Source: a bacterium (GTDB lineage: Bacteria; BMS3Abin14). From it: DNA of 15,444 nt. The translations under genes were made by a program, and so were the position numbers. Where the stretch lies: assembly GCA_020349685.1 (NCBI GenBank), contig CP070698.1, positions 476,040 through 491,483 on the forward strand. Reading direction: 5' to 3'. Below the pieces are notes generated by a model. The model made no database searches, was not told the DNA's origin, and saw nothing but the letters and a program-made list of their open reading frames with translations. This document shows positions 1 through 15,362 of the stretch, piece after piece. Numbering within the stretch: the first letter of the stretch is position 1; every line of letters starts with the position of its first letter.

Positions 1-175
1 CACCGATCACCGATCACCGATCACCGATCACCGATCACCGATCACCCATCACCGATCACCGATCACCGATCACCGATCACCGATCACCGATCACGAATCA
101 CGAATCACGGATCTCGGATCACGAATCACAGATCTCGGATCACGGATCACGAATCACCGATCACGAATCACGGAC
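1..175. repeat. Heptamer tandem array, 25 units (CACCGAT, degenerating to CACGAAT/CACGGAT/CTCGGAT), truncated by the window edge
   Basis: Exact 7-nt phase from 1 to 175. Twelve of the first 13 units are CACCGAT and the later units are variants. The array ends 3 nt before the aspS SD (AAGGAG, 179-184). Confidence 0.97.
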
Positions 176-190
176 CCTAAGGAGCTGCCC

Positions 191-1990
191 TTGGAAACCA
201 TCATAAAACTCGATCCACTGGGGGACTGGAAGCGCACGCATCACTGTAACGCTCTGACCGAGAAGAATATCGGCGAGAAGGTCCTCCTCATGGGCTGGGT
301 CCTTCGCCGGCGAGACCATGGCGGCCTTATCTTCGTGGACCTGAGGGACCGTTGGGGGCTGACCCAGGTCGTATTCAACCCTGAAAACGATGCAGCGTCC
401 CACAGCAGAGCCGAGGGTCTGCGATCCGAGCATGTCATCGCGGTCAAGGGTGAGGTTATTCCGCGGCCGGAAGGTATGGAGAACCTGGATCTTGCCACCG
501 GCAGGATCGAGGTGATGGTCAACGAACTGAAGGTGCTCAACGACAGCCTGACACCGCCTTTCAGCCTCGATGAGAGGGAAGGAGTTGAGGTGGCGGAGAA
601 CGTGAGGCTGAAATACCGCTATCTGGACCTGCGCAGGGAAACCCTTCGCAACAACATGGTCCTCAGGTCCCGGGTCAGTAAAAGAGTCCGTGATTTCTTC
701 TACGGGGAAGATTTCCTGGAGATCGAGACCCCGTTCCTGACCAAGAGCACGCCGGAAGGTGCGCGGGACTACCTGGTACCCAGCAGGGTTCATAATGGAC
801 TCATGTACGCCCTTCCCCAGTCACCGCAGCTGTTCAAGCAGCTTCTCATGGTATCGGGGTACGACCGCTATTTTCAGATCGTGCACTGTTTCAGGGATGA
901 GGACCTGAGGGCAGACCGCCAGCCGGAATTTACCCAGATCGATGTCGAGATGTCCTTCATCGCGGAGGATACCCTGTTCGAAGTGATGGAGCGGATGATC
1001 GCAGACCTTTTCGAATTCGCCCTGGGTGTCGAAATTCCCATACCATTCCCGAGGCTTGGGTACGCGGAGGTCATGGACAGGTTCGGCGTGGACCGGCCGG
1101 ACACCCGTTTTGGAATGGAGCTGCTGGACCTTACCGGACTCCTGGGAAAGACGGAGGCAAGGGTCTTTGCAGACACGGTAAAGGGTGGCGGCATCATCAA
1201 GGCCTTTAACGTCAAGGGCGGGTCGGAGATGTCACGCAAGGAGCTCGACGAGCTGACGGACCACGCAGCCATATATGGCGCCAAAGGGCTCGCATGGTTC
1301 AAGTGCAACCCGGAGGGCTGGCAGTCGCCCCTGGCCAAATTCATCGCAGAGGAGATCCGGCATGAGGTCCAGGGCCTGGCATCCTTCGAACCCGGCGATC
1401 TGCTGCTCGTCATCGCGGGCGAGGCATCCATGGTCAACGAATCCCTTGGACAGCTCAGGCTGCACGTTGCCCAGAGGATGGACCTCATTCCCGAAGACAG
1501 GTTCGATTTCCTCTGGGTGGTCGATTTTCCGCTCTTCGAGTACGACGCCGAGGAGGGAAGGTATTATTCCATGCACCACCCCTTCACTTCGCCGAAGGAG
1601 GAGGATCTCGCCCTGCTCGAGAGCGATCCCGGCAGGGTCCGCGCCAGGGCTTATGACGTGGTCCTCAACGGGTCGGAGATCGGGGGCGGGAGTATCCGTA
1701 TCCACAGCAAGGACGTCCAGAGCCAGATCTTTCAACTGCTCAACATAGGACCGGAAGAAGCAAGGGAGAAGTTCGGGTTCCTTCTGGACGCACTCCAGTA
1801 TGGCGCGCCTCCTCACGGCGGTATCGCCTTCGGTCTGGACAGGATCATGATGCTCCTTACCGGGGCCGGTTCCATCAGAGACGTCATCCCCTTTCCAAAA
1901 ACCCAGAAGGCAACCTGCCTCCTCACGGAGGCGCCCAGTCCGGTGGATCCCGCCCAGCTCGCCGAGCTGGGACTTAGATTGCGCAAGTAG
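191..1990 (+). CDS. aspS: Aspartate--tRNA ligase, bacterial type with GAD insert, probably non-discriminating (Asp/Asn)
   Basis: N-terminal OB fold (GWVLRRRDHGGLIFVDLRD), STPEGARDYLVPSR, motif 2 FRDEDLRADRQPEFTQID, motif 3 GAPPHGGIAFGLDR. TTG start 6 nt after AAGGAG. Confidence 0.98.
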   Translation: METIIKLDPLGDWKRTHHCNALTEKNIGEKVLLMGWVLRRRDHGGLIFVDLRDRWGLTQVVFNPENDAASHSRAEGLRSEHVIAVKGEVIPRPEGMENLDLATGRIEVMVNELKVLNDSLTPPFSLDEREGVEVAENVRLKYRYLDLRRETLRNNMVLRSRVSKRVRDFFYGEDFLEIETPFLTKSTPEGARDYLVPSRVHNGLMYALPQSPQLFKQLLMVSGYDRYFQIVHCFRDEDLRADRQPEFTQIDVEMSFIAEDTLFEVMERMIADLFEFALGVEIPIPFPRLGYAEVMDRFGVDRPDTRFGMELLDLTGLLGKTEARVFADTVKGGGIIKAFNVKGGSEMSRKELDELTDHAAIYGAKGLAWFKCNPEGWQSPLAKFIAEEIRHEVQGLASFEPGDLLLVIAGEASMVNESLGQLRLHVAQRMDLIPEDRFDFLWVVDFPLFEYDAEEGRYYSMHHPFTSPKEEDLALLESDPGRVRARAYDVVLNGSEIGGGSIRIHSKDVQSQIFQLLNIGPEEAREKFGFLLDALQYGAPPHGGIAFGLDRIMMLLTGAGSIRDVIPFPKTQKATCLLTEAPSPVDPAQLAELGLRLRK

Positions 1991-2206
1991 CTTCGGATGA
2001 GCCTGGCAGAGGGGTGTGCCTGGGCACGTGGGAGAAGCTCGCAACAGATAAAACAGGATCGGTCAGTATCAAGCGGAATTTTGAATTAAGAAGGGATCTT
2101 CTGCGTTCAGCGTTCCCGACGCAGTCACAGTTTTTCAAGCGGTCAACGATTTACTTTTTTCATTTGTTTTTCCTTTCACTAATCACCGTTTTTCCCCGAA
2201 AATTCC

Positions 2207-2241
2207 TTGACAGTTCGAAAAGTGGGCTATATAGGTATACT
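2207..2241 (+). promoter_or_regulatory. Putative sigma70 promoter for the mdh leader or sRNA
   Basis: Perfect TTGACA at 2207-2212 with AT-rich sequence upstream. TATAGG at 2230-2235 lies at 17-nt spacing (imperfect -10); TATACT at 2236-2241 is nearby. Confidence 0.55.
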
Positions 2242-2259
2242 GTATATTGTATACCAATT
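2234..2259. promoter_or_regulatory. Palindromic operator GGTATAC-N8-GTATACC, GntR/FadR-like
   Basis: 2234-2240 and 2249-2255 are perfect inverted copies. Three GTATAY units occur at 7-nt period. It overlaps the predicted -10/+1 region. Confidence 0.55.
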
Positions 2260-2270
2260 ATATGCATGCA

Positions 2271-2379
2271 TTCAGTGTCAGGCCTCAGCCGACCTGGTTC
2301 AGCGACACCCCCCTCCGCTGAGTCAGACGGGAAGGCCGGTTTGAAGGGGGTTCGACGGCGACGTCGTCCCCCTTTTTTT
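2271..2379 (+). ncRNA. Candidate structured sRNA or leader (attenuator) RNA upstream of mdh
   Basis: Hairpin 2281-2337: an 11-bp core (2294-2304/2316-2326) with two G-U pairs, plus CCG/CGG and GGCCT/AGGCC extensions, closing the loop ACACCCCCCTC. It is followed by a terminator. I do not recognise a known family. Confidence 0.5.
2344..2379 (+). terminator. Intrinsic terminator in the aspS-mdh spacer
   Basis: AAGGGGG-tt-CGACG-(GCGA)-CGTCG-t-CCCCC followed by T7; the loop is a GNRA tetraloop. Confidence 0.8.
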
Positions 2380-2460
2380 GGATTTAAGGGCCCGGTGGCG
2401 GATTCTTACGGGGATGTTTAAGGGGCTTTTATTCAGGAATATCCACGCAGTCAAGGGATC

Positions 2461-2547
2461 GTTCGGCAATCAGCAATCAGTCATCGATAGCCTGTTCGGG
2501 AACACCCCGTACACTGGCTGATTGCAGATCACGGATCACTGCTGAAC
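2461..2547. repeat. Short inverted heptamer arrays upstream of mdh
   Basis: Left units CGGCAAT CAGCAAT CAGTCAT (2464-2484); right units GGCTGAT TGCAGAT CACGGAT CACTGCT (2516-2543). 2473-2483 pairs with 2515-2525 (11 bp, one G-U). Confidence 0.65.
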
Positions 2548-2581
2548 CGGGATAAACGGTTCAACAACAAAGGGGGCTTAA

Positions 2582-3520
<939 letters not shown>

Positions 3521-3550
3521 TGGAAATCTTGAGTTTCTGTTCGCTCATCC

Positions 3551-3630
3551 AGGGAGGGAGACCACCGGCAGGCCCGGTGGCTGCCTCCCTTTCCCTTTTA
3601 TCAGGACGTCAGCCCGCCTGATCCTTTTTT
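3551..3630 (+). terminator. Tandem hairpins after mdh, a possible partial terminator
   Basis: AGGGAGG..CCACCGG/CCGGTGG..CCTCCCT (3551-3590), then ATCAGG/CCTGAT (3600-3622) followed by T6. Confidence 0.55.
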
Positions 3631-3675
3631 GACAAATTTGAGGCGGAGAAGGGTAGTACCCTGAAAGGGTTGCGT

Positions 3676-4515
3676 ATGAGAGAGATCACAGCTGGGGAGA
3701 TAACACGAGCTGTCAAGGAAATGGCCATGAGCGCCGCCTATCACCTGGGAGAGGATGTGGTCAACGCTCTCGAAAAGGGGCTTGAGATGGAGACGTCGCC
3801 GGCAGGGCAGGACGTGCTGAAGCAGCTGCTCGAGAATGCGCAGATCGCGGACGAAGGCAAATTTCCCATGTGCCAGGACACGGGTTTTGCCGTTATCTTC
3901 GTCGAGCTTGGACAGGACGTGCATGTAACGGGGGGAGATCTCAACGAGGCCATCAACGAGGGTGTCCGGCAGGGATATGAGGAAGCGTACCTTCGCAAGA
4001 GCGTCTGTCACCCCTTTACCCGCAAGAACACGGGCGATAATACTCCGGCCATCATCCACGTGAAGGTCGTGCCTGGCGATCGTCTGAAACTTACCCTGGC
4101 GGGTAAAGGGGGCGGCAGCGAAAATATGAGCCGGGTGATGATGCTCAAACCTTCCGACGGCAAGGACGGGATCATCGAATACGTTGTTCAGCGGGTTAAG
4201 GAGTCCGGGCCCAATCCGTGCCCGCCTATCGTTGTCGGTGTCGGCATTGGCGGCACCTTTGAAAGGGCTGCCCTGCTTGCCAAGGAGGCCCTGCTCAGGC
4301 ACATCGGAGAGCCTAATCCCGATGCCGAACTGGCCGAGATGGAAAGGACCATTCTCGAGAGGGTCAACAAGCTCGGTATAGGGCCGGCCGGGCTGGGTGG
4401 ACGTACCACCGCTCTGGGCGTCCATGTCGAGATGCAACCGTGCCACATAGCCAGCCTTCCCGTGGCCGTTAACATCAACTGTCATGCCCACAGGCACAAG
4501 GAATTTATTATTTAG
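3676..4515 (+). CDS. fumA: Class I (Fe-S) fumarate hydratase, two-subunit type, alpha subunit
   Basis: PMCQDTG, KGGGSEN, NPCPP, GIGPAGLGG and INCHAHRH motifs of the FumA-N/TtdA family. ATG 3676 (MREI) is preferred over TTG 3670 because of AAAGGG at 3664-3669. TCA context favours fumarase over tartrate dehydratase. Confidence 0.9.
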   Translation: MREITAGEITRAVKEMAMSAAYHLGEDVVNALEKGLEMETSPAGQDVLKQLLENAQIADEGKFPMCQDTGFAVIFVELGQDVHVTGGDLNEAINEGVRQGYEEAYLRKSVCHPFTRKNTGDNTPAIIHVKVVPGDRLKLTLAGKGGGSENMSRVMMLKPSDGKDGIIEYVVQRVKESGPNPCPPIVVGVGIGGTFERAALLAKEALLRHIGEPNPDAELAEMERTILERVNKLGIGPAGLGGRTTALGVHVEMQPCHIASLPVAVNINCHAHRHKEFII

Positions 4516-4554
4516 GAGTCAGCCTGGGAATCTGGCTCCACCTAAATAATAAAT
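4503..4554. other. Long inverted repeat overlapping the fumarase-alpha stop codon
   Basis: ATTTATTATTTAGG (4503-4516) and CCTAAATAATAAAT (4541-4554) form a perfect 14-bp pair, with an inner AGTCAG/CTGGCT stem. Confidence 0.8.
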
Positions 4555-4611
4555 ATAAAGGAGAGCAAAGGCTTACCGTACGAAAAAGGTTTGAATTCTT
4601 TGATCTTTTAT

Positions 4612-4639
4612 ATTTTTTTCAGCACCAGCTGAAAAAAAT
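4612..4639. promoter_or_regulatory. Perfect 12-bp palindrome abutting the fumarase-beta SD
   Basis: ATTTTTTTCAGC-ACCA-GCTGAAAAAAAT; the SD AGGAGG is at 4641-4646. Confidence 0.55.
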
Positions 4640-4652
4640 CAGGAGGTGAAAC

Positions 4653-5210
4653 GTGTCCGATCCTGTTGTATTGACCCCTCCACTTACAGATGAGGATGTG
4701 ATGGATCTGCGGGCGGGGGATCGTGTTCTCATTACGGGAACGATGCTCACGGGACGGGACGCCGCCCACAAGAGACTTGTCGATCTCATCCAGAAGGGCG
4801 AAAAACTGCCGGTTGACCTGAAGGGTCAGATCATCTATTTCGTGGGACCGACACCCACAAGGCCGGGTGAGGCCATAGGGTCGGCCGGGCCGACCACAAG
4901 CTACCGCATGGACGCCTATTCCCCTATCCTCATCGAGAGGGGGCTCAAGGGAATGATCGGGAAGGGATCCAGGTCCAGGGAGGTTGTGGAGGCCATGGTC
5001 AGGCACAAGGCGGTTTATTTCGCTGCTGTCGGCGGCGCGGCGGCCCTCATCTCCAGACGGATCCTTTCCTCCGAGATCCTCGCTTACGAAGATCTCGGAC
5101 CGGAGGCGATCCGGAGGCTTCAGGTCAAGGATTTCCCCGTTATCGTTGTCAACGACACCGAGGGGAACGATCTTTACGAGCAAGGTGTGAAGGAGTACGC
5201 CATCGGCTGA
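4653..5210 (+). CDS. fumB: Class I fumarate hydratase, two-subunit type, beta subunit
   Basis: TGRDAAHKRL, AGPTTSYRMD, MIGKG, GGAAAL and DLGPEAI motifs (FumA-C/TtdB family). GTG start with SD AGGAGG. Confidence 0.9.
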   Translation: MSDPVVLTPPLTDEDVMDLRAGDRVLITGTMLTGRDAAHKRLVDLIQKGEKLPVDLKGQIIYFVGPTPTRPGEAIGSAGPTTSYRMDAYSPILIERGLKGMIGKGSRSREVVEAMVRHKAVYFAAVGGAAALISRRILSSEILAYEDLGPEAIRRLQVKDFPVIVVNDTEGNDLYEQGVKEYAIG

Positions 5211-5223
5211 AACCCTGCCGATA

Positions 5224-5368
5224 GCGTAGAGTCTAGTGTCTAGAGTCTAGTGTCTAGGGATGTGTGGAAAAGCCTATTACCAGACGCTGGAAATTGAATT
5301 ATGTGTGTTTAGAATCTGGGGTTTAGTGACATAAACTAGACGCCAGAACCAGACACCAGAAACTGCAC
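5224..5368. repeat. Inverted heptamer arrays (GTCTAGW family) filling the fumB-sucC spacer
   Basis: GCGTAGA GTCTAGT GTCTAGA GTCTAGT GTCTAGG (5224-5258); ACCAGAC GCTGGAA (5279-5292); GTTTAGA ATCTGGG GTTTAGT (5307-5327); ACTAGAC GCCAGA ACCAGAC ACCAGAA ACTGCAC (5335-5368). Confidence 0.8.
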
Positions 5369-5384
5369 TACTGGAGGTTTCTTC

Positions 5385-6551
5385 ATGAAAATCCACGAAT
5401 ACCAGGCCAAGGATCTGCTCAGGGAGTTTGGCATCCCGACGACAGAGGGTGGTGTGGCCAAAACAGCAAAGGACGCGGCAAAGATCGCTGAAAAACTTGG
5501 CGGTAAGGTGGTCGTCAAGGCCCAGATCCACGCCGGCGGAAGAGGTAAGGGCGGTGGGGTCAAAGTTGTGAACGGATCTGCTGAAGCCGAAGCAGCCGCA
5601 GCGGCCATGCTGGGCAAACCCCTCATCACGTATCAGACGGGACCGGAAGGGCAGATCGTGGGGAAGGTTCTTGTGGAGGGAGCCGTTGGCATCGCTCAGG
5701 AACTCTATCTGGGGATGGTTGTGGATAGGGCCAGCGAGAGAGTGGCGTTCATGGCCAGCACCGAGGGCGGTGTGGAGATAGAAAAGGTGGCGGCCGAAAC
5801 ACCGGAAAAGATCCTCAAGGAGTTCGCCGACCCGGGCCTGGGGCTGATGCCTTACCAGGCGCGAAACCTGGCTTACGGGCTGGGCCTCGAGGGAAAAACA
5901 GCTTCGGCAGCGGCCTCTTTCATCATGAAACTGTACAGGCTTTTCGTGGAAAAGGACTGTTCTCTTGCCGAGATCAACCCCCTTATCATAACCGATGGGG
6001 GAGATGTCATGGCCCTGGACGCGAAACTGAACTTCGACGACAACGCTCTTTACAGACACCCTGAACTGACCGAGCTCAGGGACCTCACCGAGGAGAACCC
6101 CTCGGAGGTGAAAGCATCTGAATACGGCCTTTCCTACATAAAACTTGACGGGGCTGTGGGGTGCATGGTCAACGGCGCGGGTCTTGCCATGGCCACCATG
6201 GACATCATCAAGCTCGCAGGGGGTGAGCCGGCAAATTTCCTGGATGTCGGTGGCGGGGCCAACGAGGAGTCGGTGACGAACGCATTCAAGATCATCCTCG
6301 CCGACGAGAACGTCAAGGCGGTTCTTGTTAACATTTTCGGCGGGATCGTGCGCTGTGATGTCGTGGCCCAGGGTGTTGTTGCCGCGGCGAAGAACGTGGA
6401 CCTCAAGGTCCCCGTGGTGGTCCGCCTGGAGGGTACGAATGCCGACGCCGGCTTGAAGCTCATCGAGGAATCGGGCCTTAACTTCCAGACGGCCAAAGGA
6501 CTGAAAGCTGCCGCTGAAAAAGCCGTCGCTGCCGCGGGAGGTGTGAAATGA
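5385..6551 (+). CDS. sucC: Succinate--CoA ligase beta subunit
   Basis: [58 protein letters not shown]; 388 aa; SD GGAGG. Confidence 0.98.
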
Positions 6552-7420
6552 GCATCCTGGTCAACAAGGACACCCGGATCGTGGTTCAGGGCATCACGGG
6601 ACGCGAGGGGACCTTCCATACGAGGCAGTGCGTCCAGTACGGTTCCAACGTCGTGGCCGGCGTGACGCCCGGCAAGGGCGGGCAGGACATGGACGGCATC
6701 CCCGTCTTCAATACGGTGGCCGAGGCAGTCCGGGAGAGGGATGCCAACGCCTCCCTCATCTTCGTCCCACCGGCCTTTTGCGGGGACGCCGTTCTGGAGG
6801 CCACCGAGGCTGGAGTGGACCTGGTCATCTGCATTACCGAGGGGATCCCAACCCTTGACATGGTCAAGGCGAAAGAAGCCATCCGGTACCATAATGTCCG
6901 GCTCGTCGGGCCCAATTGCCCGGGCGTCATCACCCCGGGTGAGTGCAAGATGGGCATCATGCCGGGCTTCATCCACAAGCCGGGTGATGTGGGTGTCATC
7001 TCCCGGAGCGGGACCCTCACCTATGAGGCCGTCGCCCAGTTGACGGAACTGGGGATCGGGCAGAGCACCTGTATCGGAATCGGCGGCGATCCGGTGATCG
7101 GGAGCACCTTTATCGACCTCCTGAGGCTTTTCAACGGCGATCCCGATACGGCTGCCGTCGTGATGATCGGAGAGATCGGCGGCAGCGCCGAGGAGGAGGC
7201 GGCGGCCTACATCAAGGAGGAGATGACAAAACCTGTTGTGTCCTTCATAGCGGGTCAGACCGCTCCTCCAGGCAAGAGGATGGGTCACGCTGGTGCCATC
7301 ATTGCCGGCGGCAAGGGTACGGCGGCGGAAAAAATAAAGGCCCTCGAGGATGCCGGTGTCACAGTCAGCCACAGTCCCGCGGAGATCGGAGTTAAGATCG
7401 CGCAGGTGCTGGGAAGATAA
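6548..7420 (+). CDS. sucD: Succinate--CoA ligase alpha subunit
   Basis: [26 protein letters not shown] and the phospho-His motif RMGHAGA. ATGA overlap with sucC. Confidence 0.98.
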
Positions 7421-7446
7421 CAGGGTCAGGTAACCGGAGGTTTTTT

Positions 7447-7701
7447 ATGAGCACTGTACAGGCCCGCAAGGAGGAGACAGTTGTCTCCGAAAAGGAAGGA
7501 CGGAAGATCACCGTCATCCCGCGTTACTGCAAGGGGTGCGAGATATGCGTAGCACTGTGTCCTAAATCGGTGCTGGAGATCAGGGAATTCAAGGTCTACG
7601 TAGCCCGTATCGAGGACTGCAACGAGTGTCTGCTCTGTGAGATCAGGTGCCCGGATTTCGCCATCGAGGTGGAAGGCAAAGGCAAGAAGGGAAAAAGCTG
7701 A
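7447..7701 (+). CDS. korD: 2-oxoglutarate:ferredoxin oxidoreductase delta subunit (2x[4Fe-4S] ferredoxin-like)
   Basis: CKGCEICVALCP and CNECLLCEIRCPDFAI; SD GGAGG; its stop overlaps the korA ATG. Confidence 0.9.
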   Translation: MSTVQARKEETVVSEKEGRKITVIPRYCKGCEICVALCPKSVLEIREFKVYVARIEDCNECLLCEIRCPDFAIEVEGKGKKGKS

Positions 7702-8834
7702 TGAGTGGGAAAGAGGTTTTCTACCAGGGAAACGAAGCCTGCGCCGAGGGCGCGCTTTATGCCGGGTGCCGTTTTTTCGGCGGATATCCCATAACGCCCT
7801 CCACGGAGGTCGCCGAGTTCCTGTCACGGCGCCTCCCCAGGGTGGGCGGAGCCTTCATCCAGATGGAGGATGAGATCGCGGCCATGGCCTCTATCATAGG
7901 GGCCTCCCTCGTGGGCAAGAAGAGCCTTACGGCTACGAGCGGGCCCGGCATGTCGCTGAAGCTGGAAAATATCGGTTTTGCCTGCATCACCGAGGTGCCC
8001 TGTGTCATCGTCAATGTCATGCGTGGCGGTCCCAGCACCGGTCTTCCCACCGGTCCCGGGCAATCGGATGTCATGCAGGCCAAGTGGGGGACCCACGGCG
8101 ATCATCCGGCCATCGCCCTCGCGCCTGCTTCTGTGCAGGAGATCTTCAATGAGACCGTGAGGGCTTTCAATATCTCCGAACGGCTGCGCACTCCGGTGAT
8201 CCTCCTGACGGATGAGATCATCGGGCACATGAGGGAAAAGATAACCATACCGGAAAAGGGGGAGCTGGAGATCTGGGACAGGCCGAGACCGGACTGCCCA
8301 CCCGAGGAGTACCTTCCCTACGACACGAGCAAAGGTATTATCCCTCCCATGGCGGATTTCGGATCCGGGTACCGATGGCATGTCACCGGCCTCAACCACG
8401 ACGCGTCCGGCTTCCCGACCAACAAACCCTCCCTGGTCCAGCCGGAGGAAGAGCGGCTTATGGCCAAGGTGACCGAGAACCTGGACATCATTGAGAAGTA
8501 CGAACATTTGACCAAAGACGGTGCGAAGGTCGGTATCGTGGCCTACGGTTCCAGCGCCAGGTCCGCCAACGCTGCGATCAGGCTGGCCCTGGAGGAGGGG
8601 ATACCGGTGGATTTCATCCGGCCCATCACCCTCTGGCCCTACCCGTCCCAACCTACTATCGAGATGGCCGAAAAGGTCGACACCATCGTTGTCCCCGAGA
8701 TGAACCTGGGACAGATGATCGACGAGGTGCAGCGGTGCATTGAGGGACGGGCCAAGGTTGTGGGCGTCAACAGGGTGGACGGCGATCCCATCACGCCCGA
8801 AAATATTCTCGAAAAGATCAGGGAGGTGGCGTAA
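7701..8834 (+). CDS. korA: 2-oxoglutarate:ferredoxin oxidoreductase alpha subunit
   Basis: GNEA, GYPITPSTE, QMEDEIA, TATSGPG, RGGPSTGLPT. The start is more likely ATG 7701 (TGATG coupling to korD) than 7647. Confidence 0.93.
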   Translation: MSGKEVFYQGNEACAEGALYAGCRFFGGYPITPSTEVAEFLSRRLPRVGGAFIQMEDEIAAMASIIGASLVGKKSLTATSGPGMSLKLENIGFACITEVPCVIVNVMRGGPSTGLPTGPGQSDVMQAKWGTHGDHPAIALAPASVQEIFNETVRAFNISERLRTPVILLTDEIIGHMREKITIPEKGELEIWDRPRPDCPPEEYLPYDTSKGIIPPMADFGSGYRWHVTGLNHDASGFPTNKPSLVQPEEERLMAKVTENLDIIEKYEHLTKDGAKVGIVAYGSSARSANAAIRLALEEGIPVDFIRPITLWPYPSQPTIEMAEKVDTIVVPEMNLGQMIDEVQRCIEGRAKVVGVNRVDGDPITPENILEKIREVA

Positions 8835-9649
8835 TGGCCTTTGATTACGACAAATACATGCGCCCTGGAAAACTTCCGCACATCTGGTGTCCCGGGTGCG
8901 CTCACGGGATCGTGATGAAGTCCATCATCAGGGCCATCGACAGGGTGGGGCTGGATAAGGACAGGACCGTTATCGTTTCCGGTATCGGCTGCGCATCACG
9001 GATGCCGGGGTACGTGGATTTCAACACCCTGCACACCACCCACGGCCGCTCCCTGGCCTTTGCCACCGGCGTGAAGCTGGCCGATCCGAGCCTCAACGTC
9101 ATCTGTGTGGCCGGCGACGGCGATGCCCTCGCCATCGGCGGGAACCACTTCATCCACGCCTGCCGCAGGAATATTGACATCACCATGGTCGTCTTTAACA
9201 ACAACATCTACGGCATGACCGGCGGCCAGTTCTCTCCCACAACGCCTCACGGGAAGTTGGCCAGCACCACCCCCTACGGAAACCCCGATTACGCTTTCGA
9301 CGTTGTGGAGTTGTCCATGGGAGCAGGGGCGACTTACGTGTCGAGGGGCACGGTCTACCACGCCGTTCCACTGGAGAGGCAGATCGCCGACGGGATCACG
9401 CACAAGGGGATGTCGGTCATCGACGCCCTTTGCACATGCCCCACCACTTACGGCAGAAGGAACAAGCTCGGATCGGCAACGGACATGATCCTCTGGTTCA
9501 AGGACAACACCGTCGGGATCAAGGCCGCCGAAAGACTGTCCCCCGAGGAAAGGGCGGAGAAGATCCTCACCGGCGTGTTCAGGCAGGATATCAAGCCGGA
9601 GTACTGTGAGGAATATCAGAAGATCATCGACATGGCCAAGGGAGCCTGA
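8834..9649 (+). CDS. korB: 2-oxoglutarate:ferredoxin oxidoreductase beta subunit (TPP-binding)
   Basis: WCPGC, SGIGC, HGR, GDGD...NNNIYGMTGGQFSPTT, CPT; TAATG coupling to korA. Confidence 0.93.
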   Translation: MAFDYDKYMRPGKLPHIWCPGCAHGIVMKSIIRAIDRVGLDKDRTVIVSGIGCASRMPGYVDFNTLHTTHGRSLAFATGVKLADPSLNVICVAGDGDALAIGGNHFIHACRRNIDITMVVFNNNIYGMTGGQFSPTTPHGKLASTTPYGNPDYAFDVVELSMGAGATYVSRGTVYHAVPLERQIADGITHKGMSVIDALCTCPTTYGRRNKLGSATDMILWFKDNTVGIKAAERLSPEERAEKILTGVFRQDIKPEYCEEYQKIIDMAKGA

Positions 9650-9744
9650 GAACCTTTGGTTCTTATGCCTGTCAGCGGGAAATACAGGGGACCTGCAGTC
9701 CTTAAGACCAATTTGAGAGACGGTTTTAACGTAATTTTATCTGG

Positions 9745-9764
9745 GTTTTCAGTTTTCTGAAAAC
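9745..9764. promoter_or_regulatory. Palindrome just upstream of the korC SD
   Basis: GTTTTCAG-TTTT-CTGAAAAC. It shares the TTTTCAG/CTGAAAA arms with 4612-4639. Confidence 0.45.
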
Positions 9765-9781
9765 GCAGGCGGGAGGATAAG

Positions 9782-10318
9782 ATGGCTCAAAGGTACGAAG
9801 TGCGACTCAGCGGCTCGGGAGGTCAGGGACTCGTTCTCGGAGGCGTCATCCTGGCTGAGGCCGTAGCGCTGTTTGAGGGCATCAACGCCGTCCAGACCCA
9901 GTCCTACGGCCCCGAGGCCAGGGGCGGCGCCAGCAAGTCGGAAGTGATCATCTCCGACGAGAGCATCGATTACCCTAAAGCGACCAAGATTGACCTGCTG
10001 CTCAGCCTGACCCAGGAGGCCTGCGACAAGTATTCGGTGGACCTGAAAGAGGGCGGCATCCTCATCGCCGACAAGAGGATGGTCACGAAACTGCCCGAGG
10101 GGAACTACAAGGTATACCATCTGCCCATTATCGATACCGCCAAGGAGAAGGCGGGGAAGGTCTTCGTCGCCAATATTGTTGCGTTGGGCGCCATCGCGGG
10201 CCTTCTCGACAGCGTTTCCATTGAGAACGTAGAAAAAGCGGTTCTGCAGAGGGTCCCGAAGGGAACGGAGAACCTCAACCGGAGAGCCCTCGCACTCGGT
10301 TATGAACTGGTCACCTGA
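9782..10318 (+). CDS. korC: 2-oxoglutarate:ferredoxin oxidoreductase gamma subunit
   Basis: GSGGQG, QSYGPEARGGAS, ANIVALGA and NRRAL motifs of the POR/KOR gamma family; SD GGGAGG. Confidence 0.93.
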   Translation: MAQRYEVRLSGSGGQGLVLGGVILAEAVALFEGINAVQTQSYGPEARGGASKSEVIISDESIDYPKATKIDLLLSLTQEACDKYSVDLKEGGILIADKRMVTKLPEGNYKVYHLPIIDTAKEKAGKVFVANIVALGAIAGLLDSVSIENVEKAVLQRVPKGTENLNRRALALGYELVT

Positions 10319-10328
10319 CAATGCCGGT

Positions 10329-10383
10329 CGTTCCTCTTCTGGTTCACCCGGCCCGGACTGTCCCGGGTCAGGGGAGAGGAGCG
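10329..10383 (+). other. GC-rich hairpin between korC and sdhC, no U-tract
   Basis: CGTTCCTCTTCT pairs with GGGAGAGGAGCG (12 bp including G-U), with an inner GGCCCGG/CCGGGTC stem. Confidence 0.6.
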
Positions 10384-10412
10384 TAAAGGCCATTTCAAAA
10401 AAGGAATGAGAC

Positions 10413-11078
10413 ATGTCATTGTTAACCAGCAGTGTTGGCAGAAAGGTGCTTATGGCCGTGAGCGGGTTTTTCCTGCTCATGTTCATCGTCGCTCACCTTG
10501 CCGGTAATTCCACCATCTTCATCGGATCGGACTGGCTCAACGCCTACGCGGAACATCTCCACGAACTGGGTCCTTTCGTATGGGTGTTCAGGGCGTTCAT
10601 GCTGGCCATGCTCCTGATCCACATCCTCTTCGGTGTCATCCTGACCCTTGAGAACTGGGGAGCCAATCCGGGGAAATACGCCGTCACGAAGAGGCTCAAG
10701 GTCACCTTTTCCAGCAGGACCATGATATGGACAGGGCTGCTCCTCCTCTCCTTTATTGTCTACCATCTGCTCCAGTTCACTTTCCGCGTCACACCGGAGA
10801 TCGTTCTGGCTGCAGACGAGGTGGGACGCTTCGATGTCTTTACCATGGTCGTCAGCAGCCTGCGGATCGTGGCCATCGCCGCGATCTATATCTTTGCGAT
10901 GGTTGTTCTGTTCCTGCACACCCGGCACGGCATTCAGAGTTTTCTTCAAACCCTCGGCCTCAGCAACGACAACCTTCAGCCGAAGTACGCTCTGGCCGGC
11001 AAGCTGATATCGGCGGTTTTCCTGGTGGGATTCGGGGCTATCCCGGTCCTTATTTTTACCGGCATTCTGGTCAAATAG
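10413..11078 (+). CDS. sdhC: Succinate dehydrogenase/fumarate reductase cytochrome b subunit (single anchor, b558-type, likely di-heme)
   Basis: About five hydrophobic segments; [11 protein letters not shown]; candidate His ligands in AHLAGN, IHI, YHLLQF and LHTRHG. Confidence 0.92.
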
Positions 11079-11089
11079 GGGGCACGACA

Positions 11090-13003
11090 GTGATACTCGA
11101 CGGAAAGAGTCCGACAGGACCCATTGAAAGCACCTGGGACAAGCACCGTTTCGACATGAAACTGGTCAACCCGGCCAACAAGAGGAAATACAAGATCCTG
11201 GTGGTGGGGACGGGTCTTGCGGGAGCGTCCGCTGCGGCCAGCCTCGGTGAACTGGGATACAATGTGGAGGCTTTCTGCTACCAGGATTCTCCCCGCCGCG
11301 CCCACTCCATCGCAGCGCAGGGGGGGATCAACGCCGCCAAGAACTATCCCAACGACGGGGACAGCATCCGGAGGCTGTTCTACGATACGGTCAAGGGTGG
11401 CGATTTCAGGGCCCGCGAGGCCGATGTCTGGCGTCTTGCCCAGGTCAGCAACAACATTATCGATCAGTGCGTGGCCCAGGGAGTTCCCTTCGCCAGGGAC
11501 TACGCCGGCTACCTGGACAACCGGTCCTTCGGCGGGGCCCAGGTATCGAGAACCTTCTATGCACGGGGCCAGACAGGCCAGCAGCTTCTCCTCGGCGCCT
11601 ACTCGGCCCTTTCGAGGCAGATCAAGCTCGGTACGGTCAAGCTGTTCCCGCGGACCGAGATGCTCGACCTGGTTCTCGTCGAGGGGGAAGCCAAAGGTAT
11701 CACCATCCGGGATCTGGTCACCGGTGAGATCCGCAACCACGTGGGTGACGCGGTGGTCCTGTGCACGGGCGGGTACGCCAACGTCTTCGACCTTTCCACC
11801 ATGGCCAGGGGAGCGAGTGTCAGCGCCAACTGGGTCGCCTACAAGAAGGGGGCCTACTTTGCCAACCCGTGCTACACGCAGATCCACCCCACGTGCATTC
11901 CCCAGTCCGGGGATTACCAGTCCAAACTGACCCTCATGTCCGAGTCCCTGCGCAACGACGGAAGATGCTGGGTGCCCAAGAAGCACGGGGACAACCGTCC
12001 GCCGGGGGAGATTCCGGAGGAAGACAGGGATTACTATCTGGAAAGGAAATACCCCTCCTTCGGGAACCTGGCCCCCCGTGACATCGCCTCCAGAGCCGCC
12101 AAGGAGCAGTGCGACGACGGCAGGGGCGTTGGGCCGGGAGGCCGCGGTGTCTACCTCGATTTCGCCGACGCTATCGGGCGGCTCGGGGAGGATGTCATCC
12201 GGGAGCGGTACGGCAACCTGTTCGAGATGTACGAACTGATCACCGCCGAGAACGGCTACAAGGTCCCCATGCGCATCTACCCTGCCCCTCACTACGCCAT
12301 GGGAGGGTTGTGGGTCGATTACAACCTCATGAGCAACCTGCCCGGCCTGTTCGTTCTCGGCGAGGCCAACTTTTCGGTCCACGGGGCCAACAGACTGGGG
12401 GCCAGCGCCCTGATGCAGGGGCTTGCTGACGGGTACTTCGTCATTCCGTACACGATAGCCCACTACCTGGCCCAGACCAGCCTGGGTATGCTCAAGGAGG
12501 ACGCCCCGGAGTGCAAAGCATCTGTCAGCGAGGTCAACGCCCGGATCGACAGGCTTCTTTCCATCAAGGGAGAAAGGACTGTTGCCGAGTTCCACCGGGA
12601 ACTGGGATCGCTCATGTGGAACAACGTGGGTATGGCCCGGAGCGAGGCAACCCTGACGGAAGCTATCGAAAAGATCCCCGCTATCCGCGCCCAGTTCTGG
12701 GAGAACCTGCGGATCCCGGGTAACGGGGCCGAGATCAACCAGCAGCTCGAGAACGCCGGGCGTGTGGCCGACTTCCTTGAGTTCGCCGAGCTTTTCGCGA
12801 GGGACGCCCTGCATCGAAAGGAATCGTGCGGAGGGCATTTCCGCGTCGAGTACCAGACCGAGGATGGCGAAGCCATGCGCGACGATGAGAACTTCTGCTA
12901 CTCGGCCGCCTGGGGATACAGGGGTGTTGACCAGGAACCCGAGATGCACAAGGAGCCACTCAAGTTCGAGAACGTAGAACTGGCGGTAAGGAGCTACAAA
13001 TAA
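11090..13003 (+). CDS. sdhA: Succinate dehydrogenase/fumarate reductase flavoprotein subunit (637 aa)
   Basis: VVGTGLAG, covalent-FAD motif [37 protein letters not shown]. Start placed at GTG 11090 after AGGGGG; the ORF-track extension to 10727 overlaps sdhC. Confidence 0.96.
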
Positions 13004-13770
13004 TGAGCGCGAACAGTGAACACGGGACGATGACCCTGAAATTGATCGTCTGGCGCCAGAAGGGGCCCAACGAGCCTGGTCGTTTCGAGACCTACCTTGC
13101 CAAGGGGATCACGGAACACCATTCCTTCCTGGAGATGCTCGACGTCGTGAACCAGGATCTCATCAAGGAAGGCAAGGAACCCATCGTTTTCGATCACGAT
13201 TGTCGTGAGGGGATCTGCGGGACCTGCTCCCAGGTCATCAACGGGCTTCCCCATGGAGGACAGGTCCGGACGACCGTCTGCCAGCTTCACATGCGCAAGT
13301 TCAAGGACGGCGACACTATCTACATCGAACCGTGGAAGGCCAAAGCTTTCCCGGTCCTTAAGGATCTCATGGTCGACAGGGGCGCTCTGGACAAGGTCAT
13401 CCAGGCCGGCGGTTATACCTCGGCCCGCACAGGTGCCGCGCCGGACGGCAATTCCATCCTCATCTCCAAGGAATCGGCCGATTACGCCATGGACGCGGCC
13501 GAGTGCATCGGCTGCGGAGCCTGCGTGGCTGCCTGTCCCAACGGGGCGGCCATGCTCTTTACGGGCGCCAAGGTCTCTCAGTTGGCGGCCCTGCCCCAGG
13601 GCAAGGTCGAGGCGGCCGAGCGTGTCAACAGCATGCTCAATGCCATGAAGGAGTGCGGTTTCGGCAACTGCACAAACCACTTTGAGTGCCAGGCAGCCTG
13701 CCCCAAGGGTATCGATGTCAAGTTCATCGCGAGGCTCAACAGGGAGTACCTGAAAGCGTTGGTGTTTTAA
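13003..13770 (+). CDS. sdhB: Succinate dehydrogenase/fumarate reductase iron-sulfur subunit
   Basis: [11 protein letters not shown] [2Fe-2S], [12 protein letters not shown] and [17 protein letters not shown] coupling to sdhA (ATG 13030 is an alternative start). Confidence 0.96.
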
Positions 13771-13773
13771 AGT

Positions 13774-13975
13774 TCCGTGAACAGTGATTTGTGATTCGTG
13801 ATTGGAGAAATCACGCATTTAACGTCTGTTAAACCTTGTTAGATTCTTAAACCCGTGGCATATTATCTATTCTGATTTCAGATTAGATATGTGTTGCTAC
13901 GGGTTTCAGATTTGGGGGACCACAAAGGTTTTTTCCCGAATTTCGAATCACGAGTTACGGTTCACGAATCACAGG
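13774..13975. repeat. Inverted heptamer arrays (TTCGTGA/TCACGAA family) enclosing a long hairpin
   Basis: Left: TCCGTGA ACAGTGA TTTGTGA TTCGTGA TTGGAGA (13774-13808). Right: TCCCGAA TTTCGAA TCACGAG TTACGGT TCACGAA TCACAGG (13934-13975). Central inverted repeat at 13849-13906. Confidence 0.8.
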
Positions 13976-13994
13976 GCTTAAGGGAGGTAAGCAG

Positions 13995-14489
13995 ATGAGC
14001 AAATCGGAGAAGAACCTGGCGGAGGCCTTTGCCGGTGAATCCCAGGCCAACAGAAAATATCTCGCTTTCGCGAAGAAAGCCGACGAGGAAGGGTTCCCTC
14101 AGGTGGCAAGGCTGTTTCGAGCCGCCGCCGCTGCCGAGACGGTCCATGCCCACGCCCACTTCAAGGTCCTGGGAGGGATCGGTGACACGGCTTCCAACCT
14201 CCAGGAGGCCATCGGCGGGGAGACCCACGAGTTCATGAACATGTATCCCCAGATGATCGAGGAGGCCAAAGCAGAGGGAAACAAGGAAGCCCAGATGAGC
14301 TTCATGTATGCCAACGCCGTCGAGAAGATCCATGCCGAGCTCTACAAAAAGGCCCTCGATGCCATGGAAGGGCTGGCCGAGACCGCCTATTTCGTCTGCG
14401 ACGTTTGCGGAAACACCGTGGAAGGGGAGGCTCCCGAAAGGTGCCCTGTCTGCGGGATGGACAAGAGTCACTTTATGAAGATCGACTGA
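13995..14489 (+). CDS. rbr: Rubrerythrin
   Basis: Di-iron ligands in AFAGESQA, ETVHA, GETHE and EKIHA; C-terminal rubredoxin-like CDVCG...CPVCG; SD GGGAGG. Confidence 0.95.
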   Translation: MSKSEKNLAEAFAGESQANRKYLAFAKKADEEGFPQVARLFRAAAAAETVHAHAHFKVLGGIGDTASNLQEAIGGETHEFMNMYPQMIEEAKAEGNKEAQMSFMYANAVEKIHAELYKKALDAMEGLAETAYFVCDVCGNTVEGEAPERCPVCGMDKSHFMKID

Positions 14490-14554
14490 GATAAGCACAA
14501 ACGAATAATTTATGAGCCCGGCGAAAAGCCGGGCTCTGTGCGTTTGTGCTTATC
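14490..14554. terminator. Compound hairpin between convergent genes, probable bidirectional terminator
   Basis: Outer perfect 14 bp GATAAGCACAAACG/CGTTTGTGCTTATC; inner 9 bp GAGCCCGGC-GAAAA-GCCGGGCTC. Confidence 0.75.
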
Positions 14555-14557
14555 AGT

Positions 14558-14587
14558 GTCTAGTTTCTAGACTCTAGATTCTAGAAA
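14558..14587. repeat. Heptamer array (TCTAG family) overlapping the J-domain gene stop
   Basis: GTCTAGT TTCTAGA CTCTAGA TTCTAGA; the last unit supplies the minus-strand TAG (14581-14583). Confidence 0.8.
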
Positions 14588-15294
14588 CTCATCATCCTTT
14601 CAACCCTCTCATTATGCTTCCTCATCAGCCCGATGAGATAGACGATCTCCGCCTCCTCAAGGATGCCGATCTCCTGGAAGAACTCCCCTATGGGCCGCTG
14701 GAGCCATCTTTGAAACCCCAGCACGGAATCGCGCTGAAAGGGTGTCATGTAACCCAGCCGTGTGGCGGTTTCCCCAAGCTTTTCCCCCTTGCGGCTGCCA
14801 GAGAGGAGGGTCTTCAGGTCTTTGGATGAAAGGAATTTCCAGTTCCGGGCGATCTTGCCGAAAGTGGGCCTTTGCCGGCGCTGCCACGCCACGGCGGAGA
14901 TCATGGTGCCGAAGGTGATGAGTCCCGCGTAGTAGAGGAACTGACCGAAGAGAAGCTTCACGGGGGGGATGTCCGCTTCCCAGTAGTGTTCGCCGGGAGT
15001 ACGGCTCTGATCGCCGGCGGATCCGGCTCCATGCCGTCCCTTTCCGGTGGAGCCGAAGGCGGGGCCGATGAGTTCCCGCAGGCGCTGGTAGGCCGTCTGC
15101 ACATCCTTGAAAAGTTCACTCAGTTCGTCGCTGTTTTTGCCCAGGATCCTGGCCCTGTCGGGATGGAGTTCCATGGCCCTCCGGCGGAAAGCCGCTTTGA
15201 GTCCTTCCGGGTCGAGCTGCCTGAGAAGCTCGGATTCAGCCTTGCCCGACTCACCGTAGAGAAGGCGCAGGGCGGAAGCGATCTCGGGGCTCAC
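14581..15294 (-). CDS. J-domain (DnaJ-like) protein with C-terminal MshEN-like repeats
   Basis: LKAAFRRRAMELHPDR...FKDVQTAYQRL is a J-domain with HPD. Four 24-aa xhG-x6-G repeats follow. Start placed at GTG 15294, 8 nt after AAGGAGGAG (the ORF track gives TTG 15357). Confidence 0.85.
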   Translation of the reverse strand: MSPEIASALRLLYGESGKAESELLRQLDPEGLKAAFRRRAMELHPDRARILGKNSDELSELFKDVQTAYQRLRELIGPAFGSTGKGRHGAGSAGDQSRTPGEHYWEADIPPVKLLFGQFLYYAGLITFGTMISAVAWQRRQRPTFGKIARNWKFLSSKDLKTLLSGSRKGEKLGETATRLGYMTPFQRDSVLGFQRWLQRPIGEFFQEIGILEEAEIVYLIGLMRKHNERVERMMSF

Positions 15295-15362
15295 GGAATA
15301 CACTCCTCCTTCTGTGTGTCTGTTTCCTGTAAACGGAAACAGGAATAAAAGCGACAACCGCC

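Follow-up and report, generated by a model that had tools for sequence, protein, structure and literature searches.

What are the short tandem repeats that lie between the genes of a citric-acid-cycle operon, why do some of them reach from a stop codon to the next ribosome-binding site, and do they have any function there? The question is raised by a 15,444-nucleotide (nt) stretch of a bacterial contig (CP070698.1, positions 476,040 to 491,483; referred to below, at its full length, as the window), in which a co-directional run of genes from aspS to rbr (gene names from NCBIfam), a citric-acid-cycle operon, carries arrays of 7-nt units in its intergenic gaps. An initial annotation of this DNA took the arrays for arms of a transposase-free insertion or cargo cassette aimed at operon junctions. 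We find that they are a real, statistically strong, and recurrent feature and that they belong to a repeat class that is already known. The explanation that we favor, and put forward tentatively, is that they are heptanucleotide simple-sequence repeats that have grown in place, are transcribed, and act as intercistronic RNA hairpins where two of them are paired. The members of this set in the window are as follows.

1..175, plus strand: aspS array in a single orientation, with 13 near-perfect CACCGAT units (1-92) and then 12 degenerate units
2461..2547, plus strand: weak member at the mdh 5' region, forming a short hairpin with left units GCAATCA GCAATCA GTCATCG
5224..5260, plus strand: fumB/sucC left arm, GCGTAGA GTCTAGT GTCTAGA GTCTAGT GTCTAGG
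5278..5290, plus strand: short inverted copy, TACCAGACGCTGG, in the fumB/sucC spacer, paired in both folds to the final units of the left arm
5334..5368, plus strand: fumB/sucC right arm, degenerate and inverted, AACTAGA CGCCAGA ACCAGAC ACCAGAA ACTGCAC
13770..13812, plus strand: sdhB/rbr left arm, TCCGTGA ACAGTGA TTTGTGA TTCGTGA TTGGAGA
13849..13906, plus strand: strong hairpin, from the fold, nested in the 123-nt sdhB/rbr spacer
13935..13979, plus strand: sdhB/rbr right arm, TTTCGAA TCACGAG TTACGGT TCACGAA TCACAGG
14555..14590, no strand assigned: array at the rbr 3' end, self-complementary and without a spacer, GTGTCTA GTTTCTA GACTCTA GATTCTA GAAACTC
4503..4554, plus strand: possible A+T-rich member, ATTTATT ATTTAGG with the exact inverse CCTAAAT AATAAAT 24 nt on
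9745..9764, plus strand: possible minimal member, GTTTTCA GTTTTCT followed without a spacer by the inverse GAAAAC

Tandem Repeats Finder (TRF) returned seven period-7 rows for the window (1-164, 2235-2254, 2466-2480, 5227-5257, 5338-5360, 13784-13803, and 14566-14585), whereas 100 dinucleotide shuffles gave 0.43 rows on average and never more than 4. A lag scan found six arrays at lag 7, and all six were within the non-coding DNA, which amounts to 1,927 of the 15,444 nt; the same scan gave zero to two arrays at each of lags 4 to 6 and 8 to 12, none of them non-coding. When the non-coding DNA was shuffled segment by segment, 0.12 lag-7 arrays were expected, and 6 were reached in none of 300 shuffles. 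With the first 190 nt excluded, five arrays remained against 0.04 expected (0/300 shuffles reached five). Copies beyond chance and concentration in intergenic DNA, the marks of long simple-sequence repeats with heptanucleotide units, were thus both found, and period-7 arrays were confirmed at all five loci reported in the initial annotation. Two of the five need qualification: 2461-2547 is marginal, and 14555-14590, situated between convergent genes and taking in the stop codon and final two codons of the minus-strand gene, lacks the stop-to-Shine-Dalgarno (SD) layout. One TRF row (2235-2254) was rejected as a member, as it is an operator placed right after a promoter and conserved in relatives (see below).

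The aspS array (23.4 copies and a score of 216 by TRF) ends at 175, 3 nt before the aspS SD (179-184), and its degenerate units are of the forms CACGAAT, CACGGAT, CTCGGAT, and CACAGAT. Its fold is unremarkable (z score of 0.19), and there is no partner arm within the window. Because the window starts inside the 13-unit block, the array is truncated, and any left partner would lie outside the window; an assembly break may account for the copy number seen. The left arm at fumB/sucC starts (5224-5227) 13 nt past the fumB stop codon (5208-5210) and scores 48 at period 7 and 62 at period 14 (TRF, 5227-5257); the right arm ends (5363-5368) 4 to 9 nt before the sucC SD (5373-5377) and scores 32 at period 7 (TRF, 5338-5360). 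At sdhB/rbr, the left arm begins on the last base of the sdhB stop codon (13768-13770), with the array itself running from 13774 (TRF, 13784-13803), and the right arm ends (13975-13979) directly before the rbr SD (13980-13987). This right arm is too degenerate for TRF and is visible only by alignment to the left arm. On rereading the coordinates of these three gaps, we found the originally reported distances to stops and SDs to be correct.

Two unit families recur within the window. The aspS array, the right arm at mdh, and the right arm at rbr share one of them, in the same orientation and upstream of an SD, so the kinship first proposed for the aspS and rbr sequences stands; the sdhB/rbr left arm, when inverted, also matches the aspS array. 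The other family links the array at the rbr 3' end to the fumB/sucC left arm. The rbr 3' array (TRF, 14566-14585 and 14559-14585; also detected as a palindrome) sits between the rbr terminator hairpin and a convergent DnaJ-like gene, for which its last unit supplies the stop and the last two codons. The mdh member is a weak one (TRF, 2466-2480, 2.1 copies, score of 30): its arms align at 13/15 positions, its right side merges into two units of the aspS family (GATCACG GATCACT) and matches the aspS array, and its fold (-39.7 kcal/mol, z score of -2.43) was equaled by 4/200 shuffles. Two further candidates fall under the array thresholds. The inverted repeat at 4503-4554 has only two units but is 14 nt long and 100% complementary, covers the last codons and stop of fumA, and lies in a region (4505-4654) whose fold has a z score of -3.39. 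The candidate at 9745-9764 lies 6 nt before the korC SD (9771-9776) and forms a hairpin in the fold of 9645-9790, for which the z score of the whole region is only -1.90.

Several arrays or arms run into gene ends and provide the stop codon there (4503-4515 and 14581-14590 in the window, 3128-3140 in L039, and 19179-19196 in L001, these last being two of the related loci described below). The genes so affected are fumA, whose product ends in FII* where relatives end otherwise, the DnaJ-like gene, icd in L039, and an open reading frame (ORF) in L001. Repeat growth thus seems able to rewrite C termini.

How these gaps look in relatives bears on the way in which the arrays came to touch stop codons and SDs. 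Relatives were taken from a single KorA scan of species-representative genomes, which gave 80 loci and does not include the genome of the window itself. The closest by KorA are two uncultured metagenome-assembled genomes, L001 (83%) and L006 (76%), and the next matches are Geopsychrobacteraceae, Desulfuromonas, and Geobacter records at 63 to 65%. Gene order in L001 and L006 is that of the window, save for korC, which follows korB in the window and L006 and follows sdhB in L001 (15430-15966, versus 9782-10318 in the window), a small rearrangement in a conserved operon. The fumA/fumB, fumB/sucC, and korB/korC gaps measure 137, 174, and 132 nt in the window and 12, 21, and 15 nt in L006. In L001, the first two gaps are 116 and 107 nt long and hold unrelated sequence. 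Aligning junctions among relatives, as the initial annotation had suggested, thus does reveal different lengths (for fumB/sucC, 174 nt, 21 nt, and 107 nt of unrelated sequence). No array was present upstream of aspS in L001 or L006; L001 has arrays elsewhere, one of which (19179-19205) is of the GTCTAGN/GTCTGGN family and overlaps a stop codon. Across the 80 loci, the gap between neighboring orthologues is 7 nt long at the median (n = 197). The 6/197 junctions that contain a lag-7 array have a median of 236 nt, and an array at any of six other lags was found in 3/197. The arrays have therefore been added to gaps that are ordinarily tight. This tightness by itself explains why they reach both stop and SD, as anything added to a gap of a few nucleotides must touch both; the targeting of stop and SD that the initial annotation invoked is not needed.

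The tetranucleotide CTAG occurs nine times in the window, and all nine occurrences, as well as all four of TCTAGA, fall within the five array regions as delimited here, which total 645 nt; the count for GATC is 146. The stretches that carry CTAG are 5227-5257, 5334-5340, and 14558-14587. The two arms at fumB/sucC differ mostly by CTAG versus CCAG or CTGG, and the L001 array at 19179-19205 mixes both forms. This distribution suggests that the repeats are young and are decaying under a genome-wide bias against CTAG.

The arms of the two paired elements can still be recognized as each other's inverse. With the reverse complement of the right arm set against the left arm in register, 33/47 columns agree at fumB/sucC and 27/35 at sdhB/rbr; same-unit arrays on opposite strands are thus paired at these two junctions but not at the aspS array. 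RNA folding of 5205-5390 gave -63.7 kcal/mol (z score of -4.51) and that of 13765-14000 gave -87.6 kcal/mol (z score of -7.82). In each case, the arms form the closing stem, and 0/200 shuffles folded as well. The predicted sdhB/rbr stem reaches from the last base of the stop codon to two bases before the SD and persists with longer flanks. On the plus strand, this element folds at -86.9 kcal/mol with 12 G-U pairs, compared to -65.4 kcal/mol and 3 G-U pairs on the minus strand. The hairpin nested in its spacer (13849-13906) has no match in the 80 loci or in the other gaps of the window and belongs to no Rfam family. For the window as a whole, Rfam gave nothing at gathering scores, and relaxing the limit to E values up to 1 added only two snoRNA hits, judged to be chance, over the rbr 3' array.

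The same layout is found elsewhere. Period-7 rows are less dense in the related loci than in the window (80 TRF rows in 1.376 Mb, or 0.58 per 10 kb, versus 4.5). We scored an array as having an inverted partner when one lay within 300 nt with a score of at least 10 and compared the counts with composition controls. For the window and the 80 loci together, 15/83 lag-7 arrays had such a partner versus 2/83 in controls. The corresponding counts were 8 versus 6 of 158 arrays at lag 6, 2 versus 7 of 46 at lag 8, 7 versus 7 of 157 at lag 9, 3 versus 4 of 57 at lag 10, and 1 versus 3 of 46 at lag 11; inverted partners are thus specific to lag 7 among lags 6 to 11. Lag 7 also leads among arrays classed as non-coding in these loci (28, versus 1 to 15 at other lags), although this split is a rough guide only, because the longest-ORF gene caller used on the 80 loci is crude and mislabels large parts of their high-G+C sequence, as its calls for the window also show.

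Individual cases make the likeness plain. In the gap between aspS and its upstream gene in L052, four AAGGGTC units, a 17-nt loop, and four ACCCTTG units (z score of -4.73) form a predicted stem, and its base takes in the stop codon together with the start of the SD. In L077, AGTTCGG-type units stand opposite ACTCCGA units between stop and SD (z score of -3.95), and in L005, labeled Nitrospirae, GTTCACA stands opposite ACTGTAA upstream of sucD (z score of -6.03). The order stop, array, loop, array, and SD thus recurs with unrelated units in unrelated genomes. Further pairs are found in L063 (facing arrays without a spacer, after korB), in L027 (between convergent genes), and in L067. Unpaired arrays occur as well: 15 AAAGGGC units run from the korB stop to the korC SD in L007 (Geobacter), and 9.5 AAGGCTG units run from the last codons of icd to before mdh in L039 (a Desulfuromonas isolate). 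A single motif shared across phyla was sought and rejected, the consensus units of the 83 arrays being diverse; one family, of GTGAAC/ACTGT-like units, is nevertheless common to the window, L001, L005, and L027. The idea that each unit of the 5' arm carries a stop codon, giving stops in all three frames, was likewise dropped, as it is true of only about half of the examples. By eye, the stop-proximal arm is richer in G+T and the arm before the SD is richer in A+C in 8/10 pairs (from the window, L005, L027, L052, L063, L067, and L077). The L077 locus, from an uncultured deltaproteobacterial genome, is as rich in arrays as the window over 11124-13826: lag-7 arrays occupy its korA/korB gap (148 nt; the median for this junction is 2 nt) and its korB/korC gap (93 nt), and three more lie within 700 nt, all with different units.

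Short tandemly repeated repetitive (STRR) sequences of cyanobacteria are tandem non-coding heptamers present many times per genome, in a different phylum and with units different from those seen here; the relatives of the window lie near Geobacter and Desulfuromonas, not among cyanobacterial hosts. STRR heptamers are mentioned for Calothrix, and Nostoc is said to have "only a few paired repeats" (PMC4692102). Heptamer repeats in bacterial intergenic DNA have been known for decades. Among long simple repeats, those with heptanucleotide units are the most abundant in the majority of bacterial genomes, and polymerase slippage has been proposed as their origin (Mrazek 2007, as cited in PMC4679880 and PMC4692102). 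Paired layouts are already described in two papers (PMC2700814 and PMC4692102), and a statement that none is described would be out of date; in searches of the open-access literature, we found no paper that describes the stop-array-loop-array-SD arrangement as a general class.

A close published likeness is in Geobacter metallireducens, in which class 3 repeats consist of five tandem heptanucleotides (MTYCTGA) and form eight opposite-strand pairs, one of them between proB and proA; classes 1 and 2 have units of 8 to 9 nt, and a GGACCGG element of four units is present 49 times (Aklujkar et al. 2009, PMC2700814). These repeats resemble the arrays of the window in having short tandem units at opposite-strand sites, a variable distance between the sites, and intergenic positions that include an operon junction. 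They differ in unit sequence and in unit number, which is fixed in G. metallireducens and runs from 2 to 25 in the window, and they were read as binding sites for IHF/HU or a global regulator and not as RNA hairpins (PMC2700814). Xanthomonas campestris has 186 patterns of the GGGAATC type, of which 70 cases comprise two close, convergent sites on opposite strands. The arrays are mostly transcribed, and species usually agree in having an array single or paired (Rehm et al. 2015, PMC4692102). These, too, are intergenic heptamer arrays of variable length with some inverted pairs, but they form one G-rich, genome-wide family studied for its formation of G-quadruplexes, whereas the families of the window are several, not G-rich, and without evident quadruplex potential. 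None of the published consensus units (MTYCTGA, GTTGCTYN, and TCTCCGTS; GGGAATC) is matched in the window, whose units are CACCGAT/CACGAAT, GTCTAGN, GTGATTN, and GCAATCA.

Two further systems place heptamers next to coding starts. In Haemophilus influenzae, a transcribed (ATCTTTC)n array is one arm of a long hairpin in the 5' untranslated region (5'-UTR) of hmw1A; the hairpin is cut by RNase III, and the number of repeats affects expression (Rapun-Araiz et al. 2025, PMC12721329). No other mechanism is known to have been tested for a structure of this kind. The likeness would lie in a heptamer array, presumably transcribed in the window as well, that serves as an arm of a long hairpin beside a coding start, a hairpin that in the window is predicted. 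The hmw1A partner arm, however, is a G-rich region and not a second array, and its setting is the 5'-UTR of a phase-variable adhesin gene rather than an intercistronic gap between metabolic genes (PMC12721329). TAACTGA direct repeats, which occur in Beggiatoaceae from marine settings and in some Cyanobacteria and Bacteroidetes, precede start codons by no more than a few nucleotides, and a posttranscriptional role has been proposed for them (MacGregor 2015, PMC4679880). Their position is that of the aspS, mdh, and rbr arrays, but they are a single genome-wide unit with 169 direct sets and only one indirect repeat (PMC4679880).

On the reading that we tentatively favor, the arrays would grow in place by replication slippage and would survive in non-coding DNA alone, since a unit of 7 bases puts a coding sequence out of frame. 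Growth in place fits three observations: the 13-unit, near-perfect block of the aspS array stands beside degenerate units of its own family, as is usual after a recent expansion; units are common to different sites but spacers are not; and the period is 7 only. Where an inverted array lies nearby, the operon transcript would fold into a long, imperfect hairpin with the upstream stop codon and the next ribosome-binding site at its base. By analogy with Haemophilus, such hairpins may determine the points at which the polycistronic message is cleaved or shielded, and the gain or loss of units would change the length of the stem. Unpaired arrays, such as the one before aspS, would be the same raw material without a partner. 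Slippage, the passage of transcription through the arrays, and whatever effect there may be on the processing, stability, or translation of the RNA are inferences, and this explanation, taken whole, is plausible but short of probable.

Several results weigh against it. The L001 inserts at fumA/fumB and fumB/sucC have no special fold (z scores of -0.95 and 0.64). The closing stem at fumB/sucC is lost when 30 nt of coding flank is added per side, as local hairpins win; the original idea that these elements fold in the mRNA and bring stop codon and ribosome-binding site together is therefore supported by both predicted closing stems but depends on context at this junction. A clear advantage of the sense strand was seen in only 2/11 elements (sdhB/rbr and L063). 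In the other nine, the two strands are within about 4 kcal/mol of each other, and some favor the opposite strand; moreover, such an advantage could stem from a C-to-T bias on the non-template strand and not from selection. Translational coupling, in which a terminating ribosome would melt the base of the stem, was considered and set aside: when ribosome unmasking was modeled, the pairing probability of the sucC SD went from 0.51 to 0.57, so that it was not freed, and that of the rbr SD fell from 0.35 to 0.22, a slight release. This calculation thus lends no support to coupling, as melting the stem base leaves the sucC SD paired and the rbr SD little changed. The two unit families recur at separate sites in the window, and one of them also at a non-orthologous site in L001, which pure random slippage does not predict. 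Finally, the arrays are possibly tolerated junk.

This last possibility, in full, is that slippage together with template switching at hairpins yields the arrays and their inverted partners as a neutral by-product, kept only because it is harmless in non-coding gaps and having no function in DNA or RNA. We regard it as somewhat unlikely, but it explains much: units vary between loci and genomes, relatives do well with tight junctions, the arms have decayed from full complementarity (33/47 and 27/35), L001 has inserts without structure at the same junctions, and geometry alone accounts for the closeness to stop and SD. The confinement of all nine CTAG sites of the window to arrays, with arms that differ mainly by CTAG versus CCAG or CTGG, also fits young sequence decaying under a genome bias. 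It explains less well why inverted partners are enriched at lag 7 only, why the sdhB/rbr arms still pair through 12 G-U pairs on the sense strand, and why the same architecture is present in several unrelated lineages, and the Haemophilus hairpin shows by experiment that such structures can matter (PMC12721329).

A stronger form of the hairpin explanation would make inverted heptamer arrays a convergently evolved, adjustable intercistronic device present in several phyla, with a stem from stop to ribosome-binding site whose length slips by whole units. We consider this unlikely, and clearly so. If it were true, the ratios of neighboring enzymes in central-metabolism operons would be heritably and reversibly tunable, in effect a contingency locus for stoichiometry instead of surface antigens. 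The layout in housekeeping operons whose relatives have tight junctions offers a clean natural comparison for asking whether such hairpins control RNA processing or the ratios of gene products or are just tolerated. If the arrays are only tolerated, the result is still of practical value, as such repeats interrupt assemblies, look like mobile elements, and are able to alter the final codons of genes.

Another explanation is that the heptamers are multimeric protein-binding sites, either on DNA for a nucleoid protein or global regulator or on RNA upstream of the SD for a translational regulator. The GATCACN/TCACGAA family would suit this, as it stands in one orientation directly before the aspS and rbr SDs and about 28 nt before the mdh SD, and so would the TCTAGNN-type family, which recurs in the window and at a non-orthologous L001 site; binding has been proposed in print for both G. 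metallireducens (PMC2700814) and Beggiatoaceae (PMC4679880). We nevertheless think it quite improbable. No single binding factor fits, because there are at least five unrelated unit types within 15 kb, and there are many more in other genomes. In addition, units degenerate freely inside arrays, arrays of this sort are absent from these genes in L006, a close relative, and no candidate binding protein was identified.

REP/REPIN sequences and MITEs (miniature inverted-repeat transposable elements) are extragenic inverted pairs that form hairpins, often within operons, and occur as near-identical, fixed-unit copies moved by a transposase. A non-autonomous mobile element of this or a cassette-like kind, with the paired arrays as terminal inverted repeats inserting at operon junctions, is very improbable: inverted arms do enclose spacers of 70 to 123 nt, junctions are shorter or different in relatives, and CTAG, present in arrays and nowhere else in the window, might be foreign composition, but the two elements have different arm sequences and unrelated interiors, spacers elsewhere are plain loops of 0 to 30 nt, arrays occur singly (aspS, L007, and L039), without a spacer (the rbr 3' end and L063), or between convergent genes (the rbr 3' end and L027), and there is no cargo ORF in either element and no transposase gene in the window. 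The arms of the window are tandem 7-mers whose sequence varies by locus, unlike the fixed unit of REP/REPIN, and its copies share no conserved interior as those of MITEs would. The fumB/sucC and sdhB/rbr spacers match neither one another nor any of the 80 loci, and only the arrays cross-match; the ORFs between the arms, once cataloged, are four frames of 20 to 35 amino acids, two per gap, with no sign of coding. A direct duplication at the outermost paired bases of either element was not seen on reading by eye, without a dedicated computation. The cassette of the initial annotation is therefore not supported, and its "empty or remnant" copies presuppose filled ones, of which none was seen. Integron attC core sites, compared by eye only, did not match the arm ends. 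Promoter and terminator consensus scans were not above shuffles (8 versus 5.6 and 16 versus 14.1), and a promoter-like site at 5288-5315 in the fumB/sucC spacer was given no weight.

The genes of the window to which these positions refer are the following, with names from NCBIfam where noted.

191-1990, plus strand: aspS (NCBIfam), TTG start at 191, SD at 179-184
2582-3520, plus strand: mdh (NCBIfam)
3676-4515 and 4653-5210, plus strand: fumA and fumB, the two halves of class I fumarate hydratase (NCBIfam)
ATG at 5385, plus strand: sucC, SD GGAGG at 5373-5377
9782-10318 (the stretch compared with L001), plus strand: korC, SD at 9771-9776
Plus strand: sdhC, then sdhA (GTG at 11090), then sdhB (ends at 13770)
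13995-14489, plus strand: rbr, rubrerythrin, ATG at 13995, SD at 13980-13987
14581-15357, minus strand: DnaJ-like gene, convergent

The operator mentioned above follows a TTGACA-17-TATATA promoter as the dyad GGTATACTGTATATTGTATACC, the two together spanning 2208-2260. The full promoter and operator are kept in L001 (4474-4525 and 19428-19478) and L006 (4698-4745). L047 has only a 16-nt operator match, with a GTATAC-type period-7 array nearby (1014-1029 and 1179-1193). The dyad matches the primer-spanned sequence over the footprinted HgtR site, at +11 to +23, of Geobacter sulfurreducens gltA, and the regulon of the HgtR repressor includes icd-mdh, frdCAB, and oor genes (PMC2817479). An operator of the tricarboxylic acid cycle that matches its HgtR site is a further point common to G. 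metallireducens and the lineage of the window. Within about 110 nt past the promoter (2262-2380), there is a G+C-rich hairpin with a T run (2343-2380), some 200 nt before mdh, and L006 has a similar terminator-like end. No Rfam family matches 2262-2380, which may be a leader, an attenuator, or a small RNA.

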